Shown here in pieces: positions 14,161 to 37,871 of a DNA stretch of 44,680 nt (positions are counted from its first letter, which is position 1; every line of letters starts with the position of its first letter). The position numbers and the translations under genes were made by a program. The stretch lies in the UHGV virus genome UHGV-0024713, one strand, 5' to 3'. This DNA comes from a virus. The notes beneath the pieces were generated by a model, which saw nothing but the letters and a program-made list of their open reading frames with translations, did not search any database and was not told the DNA's origin.

Positions 14161-14184
14161 TGCGACCAATATATTGCAACCAAT
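14161..14184 (-). promoter_or_regulatory. Promoter candidate for the antisense cassette, with motif pair
   Basis: + strand TGCGACCAAT (14161-14170) and TGCAACCAAT (14175-14184); on minus strand TTGCAA-18-TATATT. Confidence 0.45.
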
Positions 14185-30227: not shown

Positions 30228-30281
30228 GGTATCATCTCCTATATTTGGTTGAGTTTTAGTATTACACCGCTCGATCAAGAA

Positions 30282-30291
30282 TGCAACCAAT
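30282..30291 (-). promoter_or_regulatory. Motif copy in the divergent region between lipoprotein and tail-fibre genes
   Basis: + strand TGCAACCAAT, reading ATTGGTTGCA about 55 nt upstream of the lipoprotein start on the minus strand. Confidence 0.4.
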
Positions 30292-32054: not shown

Positions 32055-32628
32055 AGTTTGAGTTTTCCCAGTCCATTTTGCGCCGCACCAGTGGGCTTTC
32101 GTAATATTCCTTTCCTTCCACTTCCACCAAAGGCCAGTCGTTCACAATCACGTACGGTTCTGCGATATCCTCAATCACGCCGTGCGCGCTATGTTGCCCG
32201 AACGACACACCAACCAGGATAACACCGGCAACGCGACGGGTCAGATATTCGCGAGCGCAACGGGCCTCAACCAGTCCGCGACGGATGCCGCTGGTGGCTT
32301 TCACCTCGTAGGTCCAAACGGCATCGATCATATGCTCGCGGTAGTCTGGGCCGGACTTAACCTTGCGTTTACCGACCATGATAATATCGCCGCGGTCAAT
32401 GGTATTGGCGCTAAACAGGCCGGTACGCATGAGTAAGCCTTGCGGTATGCAACTACGCCCGCCCGCCTGCCCCTCAAGGTACATGCCCGCAAACATCTCG
32501 CCCAGCACACCGACAAGACGGCTTTGCTTGCACGCGTCAGACTTTAAACGCCACTGGTCAAACTCGATGCTCGCTATCATTGCCGCCAGGTGGAATTGTT
32601 TACCAGATATTTCATATTCGCCGTACAT
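32053..32628 (-). CDS. Hypothetical protein with PD-(D/E)XK-like signature
   Basis: GPDYREHMIDAVWTYEVK (PD, 14 residues, EVK); last gene of the minus operon. Confidence 0.4.
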   Translation of the reverse strand: MYGEYEISGKQFHLAAMIASIEFDQWRLKSDACKQSRLVGVLGEMFAGMYLEGQAGGRSCIPQGLLMRTGLFSANTIDRGDIIMVGKRKVKSGPDYREHMIDAVWTYEVKATSGIRRGLVEARCAREYLTRRVAGVILVGVSFGQHSAHGVIEDIAEPYVIVNDWPLVEVEGKEYYESPLVRRKMDWENSN

Positions 32629-32670
32629 CGTGTGGCCCTCATTGATGCGGGCCGAAGCCCGCGATTAGAA

Positions 32671-33192
32671 TTATTTCAGTGCGCTACGTACCAGTGTTTT
32701 TTCCATGTTGCGGAAGTCTTCCGGCGTCATGAGGATTTTGGACCCATCTTCACCGGTGAGCACGACCATAGGCTGGACGTCTTGGGCTACAACTCCGAAA
32801 TTGGCGGCTTTAACCATCTTTCCCGCAGATGCCGAAGGATGCCACGCCACAGCGGTGGAGATGGGCCAACCTTTAAGGCTGTCGTATTGCGCTGCCGTTG
32901 TATCGATCTGAATCTCGTCATGCACGGTCATGTAAGACTCGCCCAGCAGGGCGGCATACGCTACCAGGTCGACGATATTGTCTTCCTGGTGCTTACGGTG
33001 CTGGCGCACCAGCTTCAGGCAGATCAAGAAGGTCCAGGCTTCTTGCTCGGTCAGGTCGCGACCGGTAAGCGCGTTAAACACGGCGGCGATTTGTTTAGCG
33101 ATGCGTTCTTCTTTCGCGTTGCCATAGCCGTTTTCTTTTCCGCGCTGTTCCATAGTGGTGGCGGCGTTTTTGCAGTATTCGTATGCTTTCAT
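32671..33192 (-). CDS. Hypothetical protein (173 aa)
   Basis: RBS-preceded ORF; no recognisable motif. Confidence 0.5.
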   Translation of the reverse strand: MKAYEYCKNAATTMEQRGKENGYGNAKEERIAKQIAAVFNALTGRDLTEQEAWTFLICLKLVRQHRKHQEDNIVDLVAYAALLGESYMTVHDEIQIDTTAAQYDSLKGWPISTAVAWHPSASAGKMVKAANFGVVAQDVQPMVVLTGEDGSKILMTPEDFRNMEKTLVRSALK

Positions 33193-33245
33193 TATGTGGT
33201 CCTTTTTATGGGGGGCCGTATTGCCTCCCGACGCGTTAACTATAA

Positions 33246-33267
33246 TGCAACCAACCTATTGGTTGCA
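33246..33267. promoter_or_regulatory. Inverted pair of the motif (TGCAACCAA-cct-ATTGGTTGCA) with adjacent TATAAT
   Basis: Palindromic arrangement between two minus-strand genes; minus strand reads TTGCAA-18-TATAGT. Confidence 0.45.
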
Positions 33268-33726
33268 AGTGAATTTTGCAACGTTTATTGCGTAAATTTT
33301 CGGGACCAAATCGCCGCACGCCCGACGAATTGCCGCGATGTTCTTCTCGCAGTCCTCAATGATGACCAGTTCAGACACGTCTGCATAGCAGACCATTTTG
33401 AACACAGCGCACGCCTTAAACTCTGGCGGCGGGGTGTCGTCCAGCATGTGGCGCATAAACAACCGGCCTGTCGGGAATACTTCCAGTTGCCCGGCGGTAG
33501 TCTCCCAGCATTCTCGCTGCCTGTTTGTCAGATACGCGATCTCGAAGCCTTGCTCTTTGTACATGCGCAACAGCGGCAGCATATCCATGTTCAGGTCTTC
33601 GCGAACGTGCGCTTTGTGCCACTTTGCCCAAAAGGTTGATTTCGTTTTTATTCCCGGCACCAGGTCGGCCCTCGCATCGCTTGAACCATTAATAACGCCA
33701 TCAAGATCACAAATCAGTAGTTTCAT
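33256..33726 (-). CDS. HAD-superfamily phosphatase (nucleotidase or polynucleotide 3'-phosphatase-like)
   Basis: N-terminal DLDGV HAD motif I, later Thr and IIED motifs. Confidence 0.65.
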   Translation of the reverse strand: MKLLICDLDGVINGSSDARADLVPGIKTKSTFWAKWHKAHVREDLNMDMLPLLRMYKEQGFEIAYLTNRQRECWETTAGQLEVFPTGRLFMRHMLDDTPPPEFKACAVFKMVCYADVSELVIIEDCEKNIAAIRRACGDLVPKIYAINVAKFTCNQ

Positions 33727-33947
33727 TTTAAGCTCTCAATAAGGGTATGTCGGGCGCTTCGCGCAGTAAAGGAGTTGCACACGAAATGGCAACGCTGAGT
33801 CATGACAAGCCAACCGGTGAGGTCAAGGCCCATGATGCGTCCGGGATGAGACGCGCGCACCACATGATTGCGCCGCGGGTCAATGCCGTAGTCTTTTTGC
33901 ATTCGGTCTACGACCGCAGGGTCGCGGTCAACGATTAAGATATTCAA
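33723..33947 (-). CDS. Hypothetical protein (74 aa)
   Basis: Coupled ORF between the methyltransferase and phosphatase genes, overlapping both. Confidence 0.35.
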   Translation of the reverse strand: MNILIVDRDPAVVDRMQKDYGIDPRRNHVVRASHPGRIMGLDLTGWLVMTQRCHFVCNSFTARSARHTLIESLK

Positions 33948-34413
33948 GGAGTTCTCCTTCGCTCATTATTTCAATTTGTGCGCTGCCGAGGGGCGGCGCT
34001 TCGTCAAATATTATCAATTGCTGGCACTTGTTGTTACTCGGCCCGACCTTACCGGTGACGGCGTGAATGAATCTCACCCGCCAGTCCAGAAGAATTATCA
34101 GGTTTGCAGTCTTCCTGGCCAACTTCGCCCACTTCGTCGACGTGTCCTGATTCAGTAACATGACAGTCCGGCGACCGTGCGCTGCGCATTCCACCCACGG
34201 CAGCGGGTCGGAATACGGCGGATTACACCACTTCCACCCTTTCAACTCTGCCCAGTCCACATCAAGCGCGCTTCGCTCCGCCGTGAAGTAACGTGGTAGC
34301 AGATGATTGGCGTCGCTCGCCGCCATATCGTAACGGAATCGGAACTTACGGCGCAGCGGTTTAAATAAAGCTGGCGGTGTGCGCCAGCTATCTTTCTGCT
34401 CACTCTTCTGCAT
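33928..34413 (-). CDS. DNA N6-adenine methyltransferase (phage Dam-like)
   Basis: NPPY catalytic tetrapeptide in WKWCNPPYSD; size and layout of small phage adenine methyltransferases. Confidence 0.8.
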   Translation of the reverse strand: MQKSEQKDSWRTPPALFKPLRRKFRFRYDMAASDANHLLPRYFTAERSALDVDWAELKGWKWCNPPYSDPLPWVECAAHGRRTVMLLNQDTSTKWAKLARKTANLIILLDWRVRFIHAVTGKVGPSNNKCQQLIIFDEAPPLGSAQIEIMSEGELLEYLNR

Positions 34414-34855
34414 GGTCTTGATCTATCGCGTACAGGGCAATTTTCTTACCACTGTTTAGAACGCGTTGCAGGCGCTTTGCACCCTCGATGCTAAGCGGTC
34501 GGCAATCGGAGTAGCCACCGTTTGTGCGCCACGCCATAAGCACCAAGTCTTTACGGTCGATCTTAGACTGGCGACCTTTAGGTCGTACGTACTCCTCGGC
34601 GCGTTTGCAATGCTCGCGCAGACCTTCGGCAGTGATGCGGTTTAGCGCCACGCTGGTGGTGTATCCTGTGCGCTGCATAATCCCCATCAGTTCGAAGAGA
34701 AGTCCGAAGCGTTCCGCTAACTCCTGGCGCACTTTCTTCTCTCCTTCATATAGCGCCTGGTTGGTGTCCGCTAGCGCGTTCGCGCGTTCGGCTTGTTCGC
34801 GGGCTTCGAGACACTGCGCGGCCCAGTATGCTTTTTCTTCTTGTAAGATTTTCAT
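34400..34855 (-). CDS. Hypothetical protein (151 aa), coiled-coil N-terminus
   Basis: ORF overlapping the methyltransferase start; no recognisable motif. Confidence 0.5.
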   Translation of the reverse strand: MKILQEEKAYWAAQCLEAREQAERANALADTNQALYEGEKKVRQELAERFGLLFELMGIMQRTGYTTSVALNRITAEGLREHCKRAEEYVRPKGRQSKIDRKDLVLMAWRTNGGYSDCRPLSIEGAKRLQRVLNSGKKIALYAIDQDHAEE

Positions 34856-35107
34856 TTATTTAATCTCCGTAGTGCGGATTTCATCGCGTGGGATAAATTT
34901 GCCGTCCATCTCCACCCAGCATACGCCGTAGCGCCATTGGGTGTTACGACCCGTTTGCTCTGTGTACACAGTCTCGCATTTGTAGCGGTCCGCGTAGTAA
35001 ACGCCCACGACACCCGCGATAGGTACGAAAACACAAACGGCAAGCATGAGGGTAAGAATTACCCAAAATCTAAGTTCGCCATAAATGTCGAAAAATAGGG
35101 ATTTCAT
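34856..35107 (-). CDS. Small membrane protein (83 aa)
   Basis: Internal ATG with GGAGA RBS; one hydrophobic helix. Confidence 0.45.
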   Translation of the reverse strand: MKSLFFDIYGELRFWVILTLMLAVCVFVPIAGVVGVYYADRYKCETVYTEQTGRNTQWRYGVCWVEMDGKFIPRDEIRTTEIK

Positions 35108-35155
35108 CGTGTCGTCTCCAGGTATTAAAAAGGGCGTCCAACCGGACACCCTCAA

Positions 35156-35187
35156 TATAATGCAACCAATATGATTAAGCAACCAAT
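35156..35187 (-). promoter_or_regulatory. Promoter candidate with motif pair upstream of 34856..35107
   Basis: + strand TATAAT-TGCAACCAAT...AGCAACCAAT; minus strand TTGCTT-17-TATATT. Confidence 0.45.
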
Positions 35188-35505
35188 TTACGCATAAAAA
35201 TTCGGGTCGCGCGATACGTCTACCAGGTAAAGGTTACTCATGCGGTTGCCGTAGTGCCCTGGTGTGCGCTGGCGACACACAACGGCGTAGCCCGGAGGGA
35301 TTGTATTGCCAGTCTCGATAATCCACGCCACGCGTGCGCCTGACAGCGTTTTGCCGTTGTATTCGATACGTGTGCCACCATCGGCGGTGTTGAGGTTGCC
35401 AATTTTGCAGCCAGTGGACTTCAGACGGATGACACCGGTCTTACTGTCGTAAGTGAAAAGCTGGTTAGTCATTGCAACCGAAAAATCGATGGCTTCGAAT
35501 GTCAT
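35188..35505 (-). CDS. Hypothetical protein (105 aa)
   Basis: ORF overlapping the methyltransferase-like gene stop. Confidence 0.45.
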   Translation of the reverse strand: MTFEAIDFSVAMTNQLFTYDSKTGVIRLKSTGCKIGNLNTADGGTRIEYNGKTLSGARVAWIIETGNTIPPGYAVVCRQRTPGHYGNRMSNLYLVDVSRDPNFYA

Positions 35506-36212
35506 TTTAAATTTTCCTCATTGACCGCTATTGCAAAGCCGCGCGGAGTGAGCGACCGGATTAATTTGGTGCGTGCTGATTTGCCTCCGAGGCGACTATA
35601 CTGCTTCGAGTACCCTTTTTCAACGAATACAGGCTTTTTCTCCGGCATACGGAAGCCGTTGCCGGTCCATAAGCAGGTCAGCTTCGGATACGAATCGCGA
35701 GCGTTGATATATTCCGGGAACAACGGGTGTACGTCATCCTCCGGTAGATAGCCGCCATACTCCCACGGGTCAAACGAGTGGTCTGGCTTACGCCACTGTG
35801 TGGAAAGCACACTGCGCGGATTCTCAATCATATACGGCACCTCAAAGAAGTCACCCAGAAAAGCGGCGATCTTCGCGGTGCGCACTGCCTTAAGCTGAAA
35901 GGCCGGATCTTTTGCACGCTTGCGCGGGAATGCTTGCGCACCGCTAACTGCCAGATCCGTACACGGCGGGAAAGCGTATATGATATCCGGCGTACCGAAA
36001 TCCCCATTCATCGCGCGGTCCACGAAATCCAGATCGATAAACTCATTACGGTATCGGATACCGCGACCATAAATACGGTAGTCCAGGTACGACCCATGAT
36101 CGGCTTCGGAGTAGTTGAAACAGTAGCATTTGTGCCCCATTTCGGCAGCACGCTCTATCATCAAGCCGCTGCCGTCAAACAACGACCAGATAGTCATTTT
36201 TGCAATAGTCAC
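35502..36212 (-). CDS. C5-cytosine DNA methyltransferase-like protein, unusually short (236 aa)
   Basis: Motif I-like LFDGSG, PC-motif FPPCTDLAVSG, ENV-like YMIENPRSV in canonical order. Confidence 0.55.
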   Translation of the reverse strand: MTIAKMTIWSLFDGSGLMIERAAEMGHKCYCFNYSEADHGSYLDYRIYGRGIRYRNEFIDLDFVDRAMNGDFGTPDIIYAFPPCTDLAVSGAQAFPRKRAKDPAFQLKAVRTAKIAAFLGDFFEVPYMIENPRSVLSTQWRKPDHSFDPWEYGGYLPEDDVHPLFPEYINARDSYPKLTCLWTGNGFRMPEKKPVFVEKGYSKQYSRLGGKSARTKLIRSLTPRGFAIAVNEENLK

Positions 36213-37633
36213 CTGCGCCCCTTCTTAGCTTTCATGTATTCCATCAAGTCGTCCTGAATATCTCGCTTACTGTCGCGACGCTCGGCGACCAATTCATCCA
36301 GTGTCCCGCGCGCCTGGATAATGTAGACGAATACCGGACGGGGGTGTCCTGCTTGCATCTGGCGAACCGGCCCTATACGCTCCACAATCTGCGAAAAGTG
36401 CTCATAGTTCCAGGTGTCTGAGAAGATAGCAAGGTGGTGTCCGCCGTCCTGCAGGTTAAGTCCGTGACCCGCCGATGCCGGGTGTGCAAACATGATGGGG
36501 ATCTCGCCCCTGTTCCACGCTTCCATATCCTTATTCCCTTGCTTACCCTTACCCATCGCTACGCCGTGCGGGAATTTCTTCTTGAGACGCGCCAGATCAT
36601 GCTTGTACTGGTATGCGACGAGCAACGGCGCGCCGTTCAACTCCTCCACGATACTTTCCAGCGCGTCCAGTTTGGCGTCGTGAATTTTCACCCATTCATC
36701 AGTGCGCTCGCCGTCTTCGTCGACTTTATACACGGCACCCGAAGCAAGCTGAAGGCACTTAATAGTCTTCGACGCAGCGTTCGCGGCCTCCACAGTTCCG
36801 CTTTCCAGTTCAGCAAATAGCTCCGCTTCGAACTGGTCGTATATTTTGCGGGCTTTCTTAGGCAGGTCCACAACAACAGGCGTATAGATTGGCTTGTCAC
36901 ATCCGAAGTATTCAGCCGCGTCAACGGTAAGGGATACGTCGGACAGACGTTGTTGTATTTCTTTCTCGGAGTTTTTTAGCGGGGCGTGCTGCATAGTGAA
37001 GCTGCCAGGCTTAACCGGCTTGCTAATAAACCAGCGGTCTGTGAATGCCTCATAACTACTGCCGAGGCGTTCGCCACCATCGACAAACCACGTCTGACCC
37101 CATAAGTCCTTCAGCCCGTTTGGTGCGGGTGTGCCGGTTAGGTTAATCCAGCGTTTGACGTGCTTATGCGCAATAGCCGCCAGGGCGCGGGCGCGCTTAC
37201 TGCCCTGCTTGCTGCGGTAGCCTTTCAGCTTAGTGGATTCATCGGCAACAACGACCGTAAAGGGCCACTCGTCGCCGCAATACTCGACAAGCCACTCAAC
37301 CACATCATAGTTAACACAAACCACGTTAGCGTCGCTCTCAAGCGCAGCTATGCGGTCCTTCTCTGGTCCGGTGCCGTCTACTACCAGCAGGGCAGGGAAG
37401 CGCCATTTTTCTTGCTCCGGGGGCCATGTACCGGACGCAACGCGCAGCGGGGCCAGCACCAGTACGCGGTCCTCCTGGTTGGATAGGATGCCGGTCTGGA
37501 ACATTTTATTCAGCGCCCACATAGTCGCGCCGGTTTTACCCGACCCCATTGTCGCCCATATATTGCATCGCTTATGCTTGAGGATGAACGCGGTTATCAA
37601 CTTCTGATATTCGCGACGTCGGAAACGTGCCAT
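36209..37633 (-). CDS. SNF2/DEAD-like superfamily-2 helicase
   Basis: Motif I MGSGKTGA, motif II VVVADESTK, motif III LTGTP; start at internal ATG. Confidence 0.8.
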   Translation of the reverse strand: MARFRRREYQKLITAFILKHKRCNIWATMGSGKTGATMWALNKMFQTGILSNQEDRVLVLAPLRVASGTWPPEQEKWRFPALLVVDGTGPEKDRIAALESDANVVCVNYDVVEWLVEYCGDEWPFTVVVADESTKLKGYRSKQGSKRARALAAIAHKHVKRWINLTGTPAPNGLKDLWGQTWFVDGGERLGSSYEAFTDRWFISKPVKPGSFTMQHAPLKNSEKEIQQRLSDVSLTVDAAEYFGCDKPIYTPVVVDLPKKARKIYDQFEAELFAELESGTVEAANAASKTIKCLQLASGAVYKVDEDGERTDEWVKIHDAKLDALESIVEELNGAPLLVAYQYKHDLARLKKKFPHGVAMGKGKQGNKDMEAWNRGEIPIMFAHPASAGHGLNLQDGGHHLAIFSDTWNYEHFSQIVERIGPVRQMQAGHPRPVFVYIIQARGTLDELVAERRDSKRDIQDDLMEYMKAKKGRR

Positions 37634-37637
37634 ATCT

Positions 37638-37871
37638 TTATTCCGCCTTTTTCCAGACTTCGGTTTCACTGTTCCAATTCCTTTTTGTGGCGTCGTAGTT
37701 GGTGCGGTGCCCGATGTGCACACCCGTCGCCCGGAAGCTCTTAAATTTTTGCCAGCATACCGTCAACGGCAGCGGGTCATTCATGCCCGCGATAAACCAT
37801 ACGCGATCGCCCGGTTTACATTCGCCCAGCTTGGTGAGTCGGTAATGATCTTTCATCGTCATGTCTCCCAA
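37638..37871 (-). CDS. Hypothetical protein (77 aa)
   Basis: Small ORF between the helicase and zinc-ribbon genes. Confidence 0.4.
   Translation of the reverse strand: MGDMTMKDHYRLTKLGECKPGDRVWFIAGMNDPLPLTVCWQKFKSFRATGVHIGHRTNYDATKRNWNSETEVWKKAE

Follow-up and report, generated by a model that had tools for sequence, protein, structure and literature searches.

The interval between positions 33256 and 36212 of UHGV-0024713, a virus genome of 44,680 nucleotides that was analyzed at full length and is hereafter called the window, is likely to hold independent accessory genes and not an integrated pathway: an autonomous orphan DNA C5-cytosine methyltransferase (C5-MTase) of 236 amino acids (aa), an orphan Dam methyltransferase (MTase) of the family PF05869 and a phosphatase of the Pnkp type. 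Seven contiguous minus-strand open reading frames (ORFs) fill the interval exactly, and each of them has a strong PHROG match. The source phage is a Dhillonvirus (HK578-like coliphage), and the interval lies within its early/replication arm. An earlier sequence-only reading had placed a cluster of DNA-modification genes here; the genes proved to be real and the coordinates exact, and the same set is annotated in Escherichia phage Oekolampad (Bas18).

The 236-aa protein, a member of PHROG 757 (E = 1.3e-83), carries motif I as FDGSG at residues 12-16 (36165-36179), the broader consensus of PHROG 757 at this motif being SLFDxTG, and a catalytic FPPC with Cys84 (PPC at 35961-35969). Motif VI was found as E130-N131-P132 (35817-35825), with Pro and not Val as the third residue; among the FxGxG, PC and ENV motifs read previously, the first two were recovered and the last is ENP. 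An hhalign comparison placed F12 and C84 on F18 and C81 of M.HhaI; it aligned only motifs I-IV, with a probability of 8%, and was used solely for the register of the cysteine. Among 61 aligned full-length members, which were picked from the representatives of 50%-identity clusters and share 33-55% of their residues with the query, Cys84, Gly91, Glu130, Pro132, Pro149, Tyr175, Trp182 and Pro190 were invariant and Asn131 was nearly so. The catalytic Cys had been set beforehand as the test of the cytosine MTase assignment, and Cys84 is both present and invariant. Because the catalytic residues are retained throughout these members, the gene is not decayed.

The AlphaFold2 model of the protein (predicted local distance difference test score of 89.6) revealed the three-dimensional fold of a C5-MTase. 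The top match was DNMT3B, with a score of 14.5 and 191 of the 236 residues aligned, followed by the phage carboxymethyltransferase CmoX (13.0), DNMT3A (12.7), the E. coli prophage MTase 3g7u (12.4), M.HhaI (11.6), and M.MpeI, DNMT1 and M.HaeIII (10.9-11.0); generic S-adenosylmethionine (SAM) methyltransferases and DNMT2 scored about 10. The cytosine-type class given to this protein of 236 aa by the sequence-only reading holds, the assignment resting on the modelled fold and on the motifs. The protein would be an orphan SAM-dependent DNA C5-MTase with a Rossmann core marked by FDGSG, Cys84, Glu130 and IRSLTPRGFA.

Only about 35 residues (185-218), about 17 of them variable, separate strand beta7 (TCLWTG, residues 179-184) from IRSLTPRGFA, and a target-recognition domain is absent, as anticipated by the earlier remark that little room was left for one. 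The C-terminal IRSLTPRGFA resembles motif IX of M.HhaI (RKLHPRECARV), the chain ends 12 residues later, and no motif X of the form GN[AS]V follows it in the sequence. The canonical motif VIII, QxRxR, was not found before beta7, where the position is occupied by Y175-P-K177-L-T179 with no Arg pair (matched by position). In contrast to the canonical C5-MTases of PF00145 (M.HhaI, M.HaeIII and E. coli Dcm), whose recognition domains comprise at least 80 residues, the window protein has no such domain and no recognizable motif X, carries ENP for ENV and Y-K-T for QxRxR, and lies below the Pfam threshold. In particular, the recognition domain of E. coli Dcm and M.EcoRII has no homologous counterpart in it. 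The closest fold, that of the DNMT3A/DNMT3B catalytic domain (PDB 6u8p and 4u7t), is only 15% identical in sequence and differs in that DNMT3 keeps a recognition loop and motif X, forms a DNMT3L-assisted oligomer and has a catalytic domain that is longer by about 50 residues. As the DNMT3 catalytic domain is the most alike, we infer that the 236-aa protein would recognize DNA through loops of its catalytic domain together with the conserved basic C-terminal segment.

A homologue of the protein has been characterized. Over 234 aligned residues, that is, over its full length, the 236-aa protein is 54% identical to bas06_0055 of phage KarlJaspers (Bas06), which likewise has 236 aa (711 bp), belongs to PHROG 757 and is separated from it in the alignment by a single 2-residue gap. 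C82, E128 and K175 of the KarlJaspers protein correspond to C84, E130 and K177 in the window, whereas K176 is replaced by Leu178; C82, E128, K175 and K176 are the residues mutated by Wang et al. Like the window protein, bas06_0055 is without a significant Pfam match (none at E <= 0.1). KarlJaspers belongs to the Drexlerviridae and the window phage to Dhillonvirus, and the gene neighbours differ between the two. Wang et al. studied K42, a relative of KarlJaspers in the Drexlerviridae, and found that the changes in phages escaping retron Ec86/Eco1 all lay in a 711-bp dcm gene (bioRxiv 10.1101/2023.08.16.553469). Expression of K42 dcm was toxic solely when retron Ec86 was present, and LC-MS (liquid chromatography coupled to mass spectrometry) revealed a high level of 5-methylcytosine (5mC) in the multicopy single-stranded DNA (msDNA) of the retron with K42 Dcm, and a low level with the C82A/E128A/K175A/K176A mutant or the empty vector (bioRxiv 10.1101/2023.08.16.553469). 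Additionally, changing CCTGG in the stem of the Ec86 msDNA to AATGG, ACTGG or CATGG abolished defence; the retron assays were performed in dcm+ MG1655, in which the control msDNA had low 5mC and the retron was silent (bioRxiv 10.1101/2023.08.16.553469). Later papers repeat the finding for retron Ec86 and Dcm and add that a phage Dam activates retron Sen2.

Since the 54%-identical homologue yields 5mC by LC-MS, the chemistry of this short family is, by analogy, most probably plain C5 methylation, and the atypical chemistry suspected previously for the short protein is unlikely. The second-best fold match, CmoX (PDB 8yf3), is a DNA C5-carboxymethyltransferase of 333 aa that takes the carboxymethyl group from carboxy-SAM (Cx-SAM), and it is marked by an SPPC motif, a C-terminal Arg350 that binds the carboxyl group, and CmoA and ligase genes as neighbours (PMC12783734). 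The window protein has FPPC, is missing the C-terminal region of CmoX and has no CmoA or ligase neighbours, and a CmoX-like carboxymethyl transfer was set aside as very unlikely.

Several points weigh against reading the 236-aa protein as an orphan DNA C5-MTase of this kind. It misses the gathering score of PF00145 (10.9 bits at E = 0.29, the cut-off being 22), and it has no NCBIfam match and no PDB match by phmmer or by a profile of 33 homologues. With Y-x-K-x-T in place of motif VIII and no recognizable motif X, its contacts to the cofactor and the base must differ from those of M.HhaI. The activity was reported for the K42 homologue and not for any Dhillonvirus protein, the evidence came from over-expression in vivo, and the mutant of K42 Dcm, with four residues changed, does not single out what the Cys contributes. 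In favour of the assignment, sub-threshold matches to PF00145 were present in 20 of the 33 close homologues, the best at 1.3e-6. The lone "hit" in the sequence searches with the 236-aa protein, the ToxD kinase (E = 0.3-0.8), was dismissed as noise.

Replicating phage DNA, and likewise DNA of the host or of a retron, would be expected to receive 5mC from the 236-aa protein, which may guard a limited group of sites against restriction and would be of the protein type by which retron Ec86/Eco1 recognizes infection. The present analysis shows the genes, their motifs and folds, the family membership and the lack of a conserved linkage; 5mC formation in vivo and retron triggering have been demonstrated by others for the 54%-identical homologue, and we infer the activity, target and protective role of the window protein itself. 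The gene set as such is already known, and the genes themselves add little, being conserved and annotated throughout Dhillonvirus, with a close member of the key family already studied. The remaining interest lies in a widespread minimal family that is sensed by retron Eco1 and has no domain of the kind on which sequence specificity usually depends. Mapping the target of these enzymes would clarify how 236 aa recognize DNA, what such widespread orphan MTases guard against and why the host Dcm does not trigger the retron, and a minimal C5-MTase could also serve as a tool.

The missing recognition domain and the lack of a recognizable motif X were found to be a trait of the whole family, here called short Dcm, and not of this gene. 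PHROG 757 comprises 2879 clusters at 90% identity and 1913 representatives at 50% identity (E <= 1e-3), 173 of which lie below 1e-30, and a tblastn search with short Dcm returned 1532 phage records. The carriers include Dhillonvirus, Drexlerviridae, Jerseyvirus and Vequintavirus, phages of Klebsiella, Vibrio, Xanthomonas and Arthrobacter, and one Methanosarcina virus. Among the 61 aligned full-length members, lengths ranged from 208 to 257 aa (median 234), and the family shares a conserved basic C-terminal segment, LGGKSARTK-IRS-TPR. Short Dcm is thus present in more than 1500 sequenced phages yet invisible to Pfam and NCBIfam. A few members (P0253, P0270 and P0281) reach 400-450 aa through some 175-195 additional N-terminal residues, which have no Pfam match; these extensions may represent DNA-binding or targeting domains that were added, and might give a clue as to what directs the minimal enzymes to their targets.

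In every lineage examined, short Dcm adjoins replication genes, and the identities of the neighbours differ, as among Jersey, tuinn and RudolfGeigy. The adjacent helicase belongs to the SNF2 family in both Dhillonvirus and Jerseyvirus, where the proteins are 65% identical and the gene order is opposite, whereas an unrelated helicase is found in the Drexlerviridae and a primase/helicase in Vequintavirus. A conserved pair of SNF2 helicase and Dcm, by analogy with DNMT5, was therefore rejected, the helicases of Drexlerviridae and Vequintavirus being unrelated. The 105-aa HNH-like protein encoded next to the MTase was considered as a substitute for the recognition domain and was likewise rejected, because it is not beside short Dcm in Jersey, tuinn, WaterSpirit, KarlJaspers or RudolfGeigy and because the K42 enzyme needs no co-expressed protein to work.

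Site frequencies were compared with expectation in the window. CCWGG was not depleted (156 observed, 161 expected), GATATC was not avoided (20 and 20), and GATC was mildly low (150 observed, 201 expected). We found that YGGCCR (3 observed, 36 expected), GCCGGC (3 and 18) and GGCGCC (3 and 21) were avoided, that GGTCTC and GAGACC together were absent against 12 expected, and that nine 6-bp restriction-type sites with 7-14 expected copies each had none: AAGCTT (14 expected), CAGCTG (13.5), GGGCCC, CGGCCG, ATGCAT, GCATGC, CACGTG, CCATGG and GGTACC. The main anti-restriction strategy seems to be site avoidance and not methylation. Since a mostly methylated phage would escape such selection, the avoidance of C-containing hexamers points to a narrow target or a low level of methylation, which agrees with the BASEL paper, where the marked type I/II restriction-modification resistance of Queuovirinae is contrasted with Dhillonvirus and Drexlerviridae. 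Within Drexlerviridae, according to the same paper, the presence of methyltransferase genes does not relate in any simple way to resistance against restriction. These frequencies argue against global protection only, and the target is not identifiable from them; literature searches for a methylome of Dhillonvirus or BASEL phages returned nothing relevant.

It is quite possible, though short of probable, that the 236-aa enzyme is the functional equivalent of host Dcm or M.EcoRII, methylating the inner C of CCWGG and protecting the phage from EcoRII-type restriction. The "Dcm-like" annotations, the loss of Ec86 defence upon mutation of CCTGG in the msDNA, and the undepleted CCWGG in a genome that avoids many 6-bp sites are consistent with this equivalence; however, the CCWGG specificity of K42 Dcm is an assumption taken over from E. 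coli Dcm and not a measurement, no domain homologous to the Dcm/EcoRII recognition domain can be accommodated, and the low 5mC and lack of self-triggering in the dcm+ MG1655 controls are hard to reconcile with it unless the msDNA is inaccessible to host Dcm. Because there is no recognition domain, the target might instead be very short or relaxed (2-3 bp) or structure-dependent, such as hairpin, single-stranded or replication-fork DNA, a reading that we consider rather unlikely. It draws on DNMT3, the closest fold, which reads a dinucleotide through catalytic-domain loops, and on CmoX, which reads GC only; moreover, the C-terminal segment that faces the DNA hardly varies among phages whose hosts are very different, the gene is always beside replication genes, and the sole demonstrated substrate is a stem-loop msDNA. 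Against a relaxed target, the avoidance of C-containing palindromes opposes dense protective methylation. McrBC cuts at R-m5C, and many carriers were isolated on McrBC+ MG1655, where dense R-m5C would be penalized. The contrast drawn in the BASEL paper between Queuovirinae and Dhillonvirus or Drexlerviridae points in the same direction.

That the 236-aa protein is no DNA enzyme at all, being a DNMT2-like RNA/tRNA m5C methyltransferase or an inactive remnant, is highly improbable in view of the catalytic residues that are invariant across a very large family and of the homologue that raises 5mC in DNA. More broadly, PHROG 757 might form a distinct minimal class of C5-MTases that reads a very short or structure-defined target, not CCWGG, with the loops of the catalytic domain only and perhaps as a dimer like that of DNMT3; we regard this proposal as unlikely. 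If true, it would explain why these enzymes, unlike host Dcm, trigger retron Eco1 in dcm+ cells, and PHROG 757 would contain the smallest autonomous DNA cytosine methyltransferases known.

The 161-aa protein was identified as a Dam-like adenine MTase of the NPPY type, in agreement with the sequence-only reading: it matches PF05869 (E = 4.2e-35; 121.4 bits against a cut-off of 28.1) and carries NPPY at residues 64-67 (34213-34224). Like the phage Dam family, it has an N-terminal D-x-W-x-TP segment in addition to NPPY. It scores below the equivalog cut-off of TIGR01712 (86.3 against 97.05 bits). The T1-like Dam of KarlJaspers matches PF05869 at 2e-60; the 161-aa protein is 30% identical to it and shorter (161 against 233 aa). 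T1 Dam methylates GATC. The 161-aa protein would write N6-methyladenine, and its target is probably GATC, which is a guess. A link between PF05869 and the non-specific adenine methyltransferase Hia5 was considered and dropped, as the Hia5 paper describes a DPPY...FxGxG enzyme and no such link.

In the 156-aa protein, the HAD motifs were found as D7 and D9 (both invariant), T67 (Ser or Thr in homologues), K104 (invariant) and E124-D125 (D125 invariant). The protein appears to resemble the 3'-phosphatase domain of T4 polynucleotide kinase and Pnkp1 (PDB 1ltq, 5uj0 and 4xrp), and differs from T4 Pnkp in having neither a kinase domain nor a partner ligase. It has no match to Pfam HAD_PNKP (PF25109), whereas its KarlJaspers relative does. 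The modelled HAD fold points to end-healing phosphatases, and the protein most likely heals 3'-phosphate ends of nucleic acids or hydrolyses nucleotides. A role in DNA modification was not upheld, since it looks like a polynucleotide 3'-phosphatase and not like an enzyme that modifies bases.

Together with the upstream helicase gene, the seven genes form two tightly overlapping blocks, one consisting of the helicase, Dcm and HNH-like genes and the other of the 83-aa, 151-aa, Dam, 74-aa and HAD genes. Within the first block, the GTG start of the 236-aa gene overlaps the helicase stop codon (GTGA), and the start of the 105-aa gene lies on the methyltransferase stop codon (ATGA). In the 80-nucleotide gap between the 105-aa and 83-aa genes, we found a sigma70-like promoter with TTGCTT, a 17-nucleotide spacer and TATATT (35154-35182, minus strand). 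This site contains TTGGTTGCATTATA, for which 0.24 occurrences are expected in the window and 4 were counted; 3 of them are part of a sigma70-like promoter (TTGCAA or TTGCTT, 17-18 nucleotides, TATATT or TATAGT) and are placed in its spacer/-10 region. A second promoter-like element on the minus strand (TTGCAA, 18-nucleotide spacer, TATAGT) is located downstream of the HAD gene, before the block of genes that comes next. The 8-mer TTGGTTGC forms a direct duplication at 35180-35156 and a 9-bp inverted repeat at 33246-33267, and the TTGGTTGCATTATA/TTGGTTGC sites may constitute a phage promoter family with an operator for a phage regulator. Directly after the promoter-like -10 element of the gap there is a 10-bp GC-rich hairpin, GAGGGUGUCC-GGUU-GGACGCCCUU (35130-35153, minus strand), followed by a U run; the hairpin region (35127-35153) folds at -25.8 kcal/mol (z = -3.1), and a terminator scan of the window did not list the hairpin at 35130-35153. 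Read-through from the helicase-Dcm block would terminate at this predicted hairpin, and transcripts starting at the promoter, which would begin in its 5' arm, would escape.

With a promoter-like site and a hairpin with a U run in the 80-nucleotide gap, the single operon with the replisome genes proposed previously is doubtful. The KarlJaspers homologues of the Dam, Dcm and HAD genes map to 33.0, 40.1 and 46.0 kb and lie on different strands. Because these genes are dispersed, the neighbours of short Dcm vary between lineages and terminator- and promoter-like signals lie within the interval, we do not regard it as a functional modification module, and the coherent module of the earlier reading was not sustained. 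The two MTases and the HAD protein might still act in one modification or hypermodification pathway, in which the short enzyme might transfer a non-methyl group such as carboxymethyl. In its favour, about 150 Dhillonvirus genomes keep these genes together on one strand in a stretch of 3 kb, CmoX ranks second among the fold matches, and E. coli supplies Cx-SAM that CmoX can use in vivo (PMC12783734). However, the dispersal in KarlJaspers and the signals that split the genes oppose such a pathway, as do the absent hallmarks of CmoX (SPPC, Arg350 and the CmoA/ligase neighbours), the 5mC made by the homologue and the end-healing phosphatases to which the HAD fold points, and we consider the pathway hardly credible. 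The reading of the interval as independent accessory genes is accordingly preferred.

The positions of all features are collected in Table 1. Over about 3.5 kb around the interval, identity to Dhillonvirus phages is 88-90%, and of the 158 matching records, 145 span no less than 80% of this region. The gene set is kept in about 150 genomes of Dhillonvirus. Oekolampad shares about 90% identity with the region, and in it the same genes are labelled "Dcm-like C5 cytosine methyltransferase", "putative homing endonuclease", "Dam-like N6-adenine methyltransferase", "putative phosphatase" and hypotheticals.

Table 1. Features of the interval and its flanks, with positions in the window
Feature	Position	Strand	Match or remark
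SNF2-family helicase	36209-37633	-	PF00176, PHROG 62; immediately upstream of the 236-aa gene
Predicted minimal orphan DNA C5-cytosine methyltransferase, 236 aa	35502-36212	-	PHROG 757, "Dcm-like"
Degenerate HNH_3-like protein, 105 aa	35188-35505	-	PHROG 99, E = 1.4e-15
Intergenic control region, promoter-like site and hairpin	35127-35182	-	
Protein with one predicted transmembrane helix, 83 aa	34856-35107	-	PHROG 18961, E = 1e-44
Protein with no assigned function, 151 aa	34400-34855	-	PHROG 10530, E = 4e-90
Predicted phage Dam-type N6-adenine DNA methyltransferase, 161 aa	33928-34413	-	PF05869
Conserved protein, 74 aa	33723-33947	-	PHROG 10685, E = 1e-41, full length
Predicted stand-alone capless HAD phosphatase, 156 aa	33256-33726	-	DxD at 33700-33708
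Second promoter-like element with inverted repeat	33239-33268	-	
TTGGTTGCATTATA copies	35156-35169, 33241-33254, 14170-14183, 30277-30290	all -	

The interval had been credited with three unknown small proteins; the count is four without an assigned function, one of which is the degenerate HNH_3-like protein of 105 aa. In an alignment of this protein to the HNH endonuclease of Jersey, Ala stands in the place of the first catalytic His (GARVAW against AHRLAW); it has no AP2 DNA-binding domain and matches Pfam HNH_3 at E = 0.23 only. Judged from its sequence, it is probably an inactive remnant of a homing endonuclease. The hydropathy profile of the 83-aa protein predicts a transmembrane helix at residues 16-34; the raw ORF has 108 aa, PHROG 18961 matches raw residues 26-108, and Oekolampad annotates a gene of 243 bp. 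The 151-aa protein has no Pfam or NCBIfam match and no ligase domain or motif. Its PHROG carries the label "DNA ligase", which is unsupported, one GenBank record reading "Possible DNA ligase but no evidence", and this label looks like a propagated annotation error. No recognizable domain was found in the 74-aa protein, whose gene has a TTG start, overlaps both neighbours and is annotated in Oekolampad.

Rfam and tRNA scans of the whole window found nothing. A plus-strand ORF of 349 aa (32590-33639), antisense to the HAD and DUF6378 genes, is unsupported and most likely reflects chance in a GC-rich antisense sequence. The helicase ORF was listed at 36209-37723 on the minus strand, with 504 aa and a GTG start. 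The Jersey SNF2 helicase is 65% identical to it when counted from residue 31, and because the homologues of Jersey and Oekolampad have 474 aa and align from Met31, the true start is probably this Met31 (ATG at 37633), which gives a protein of 474 aa.

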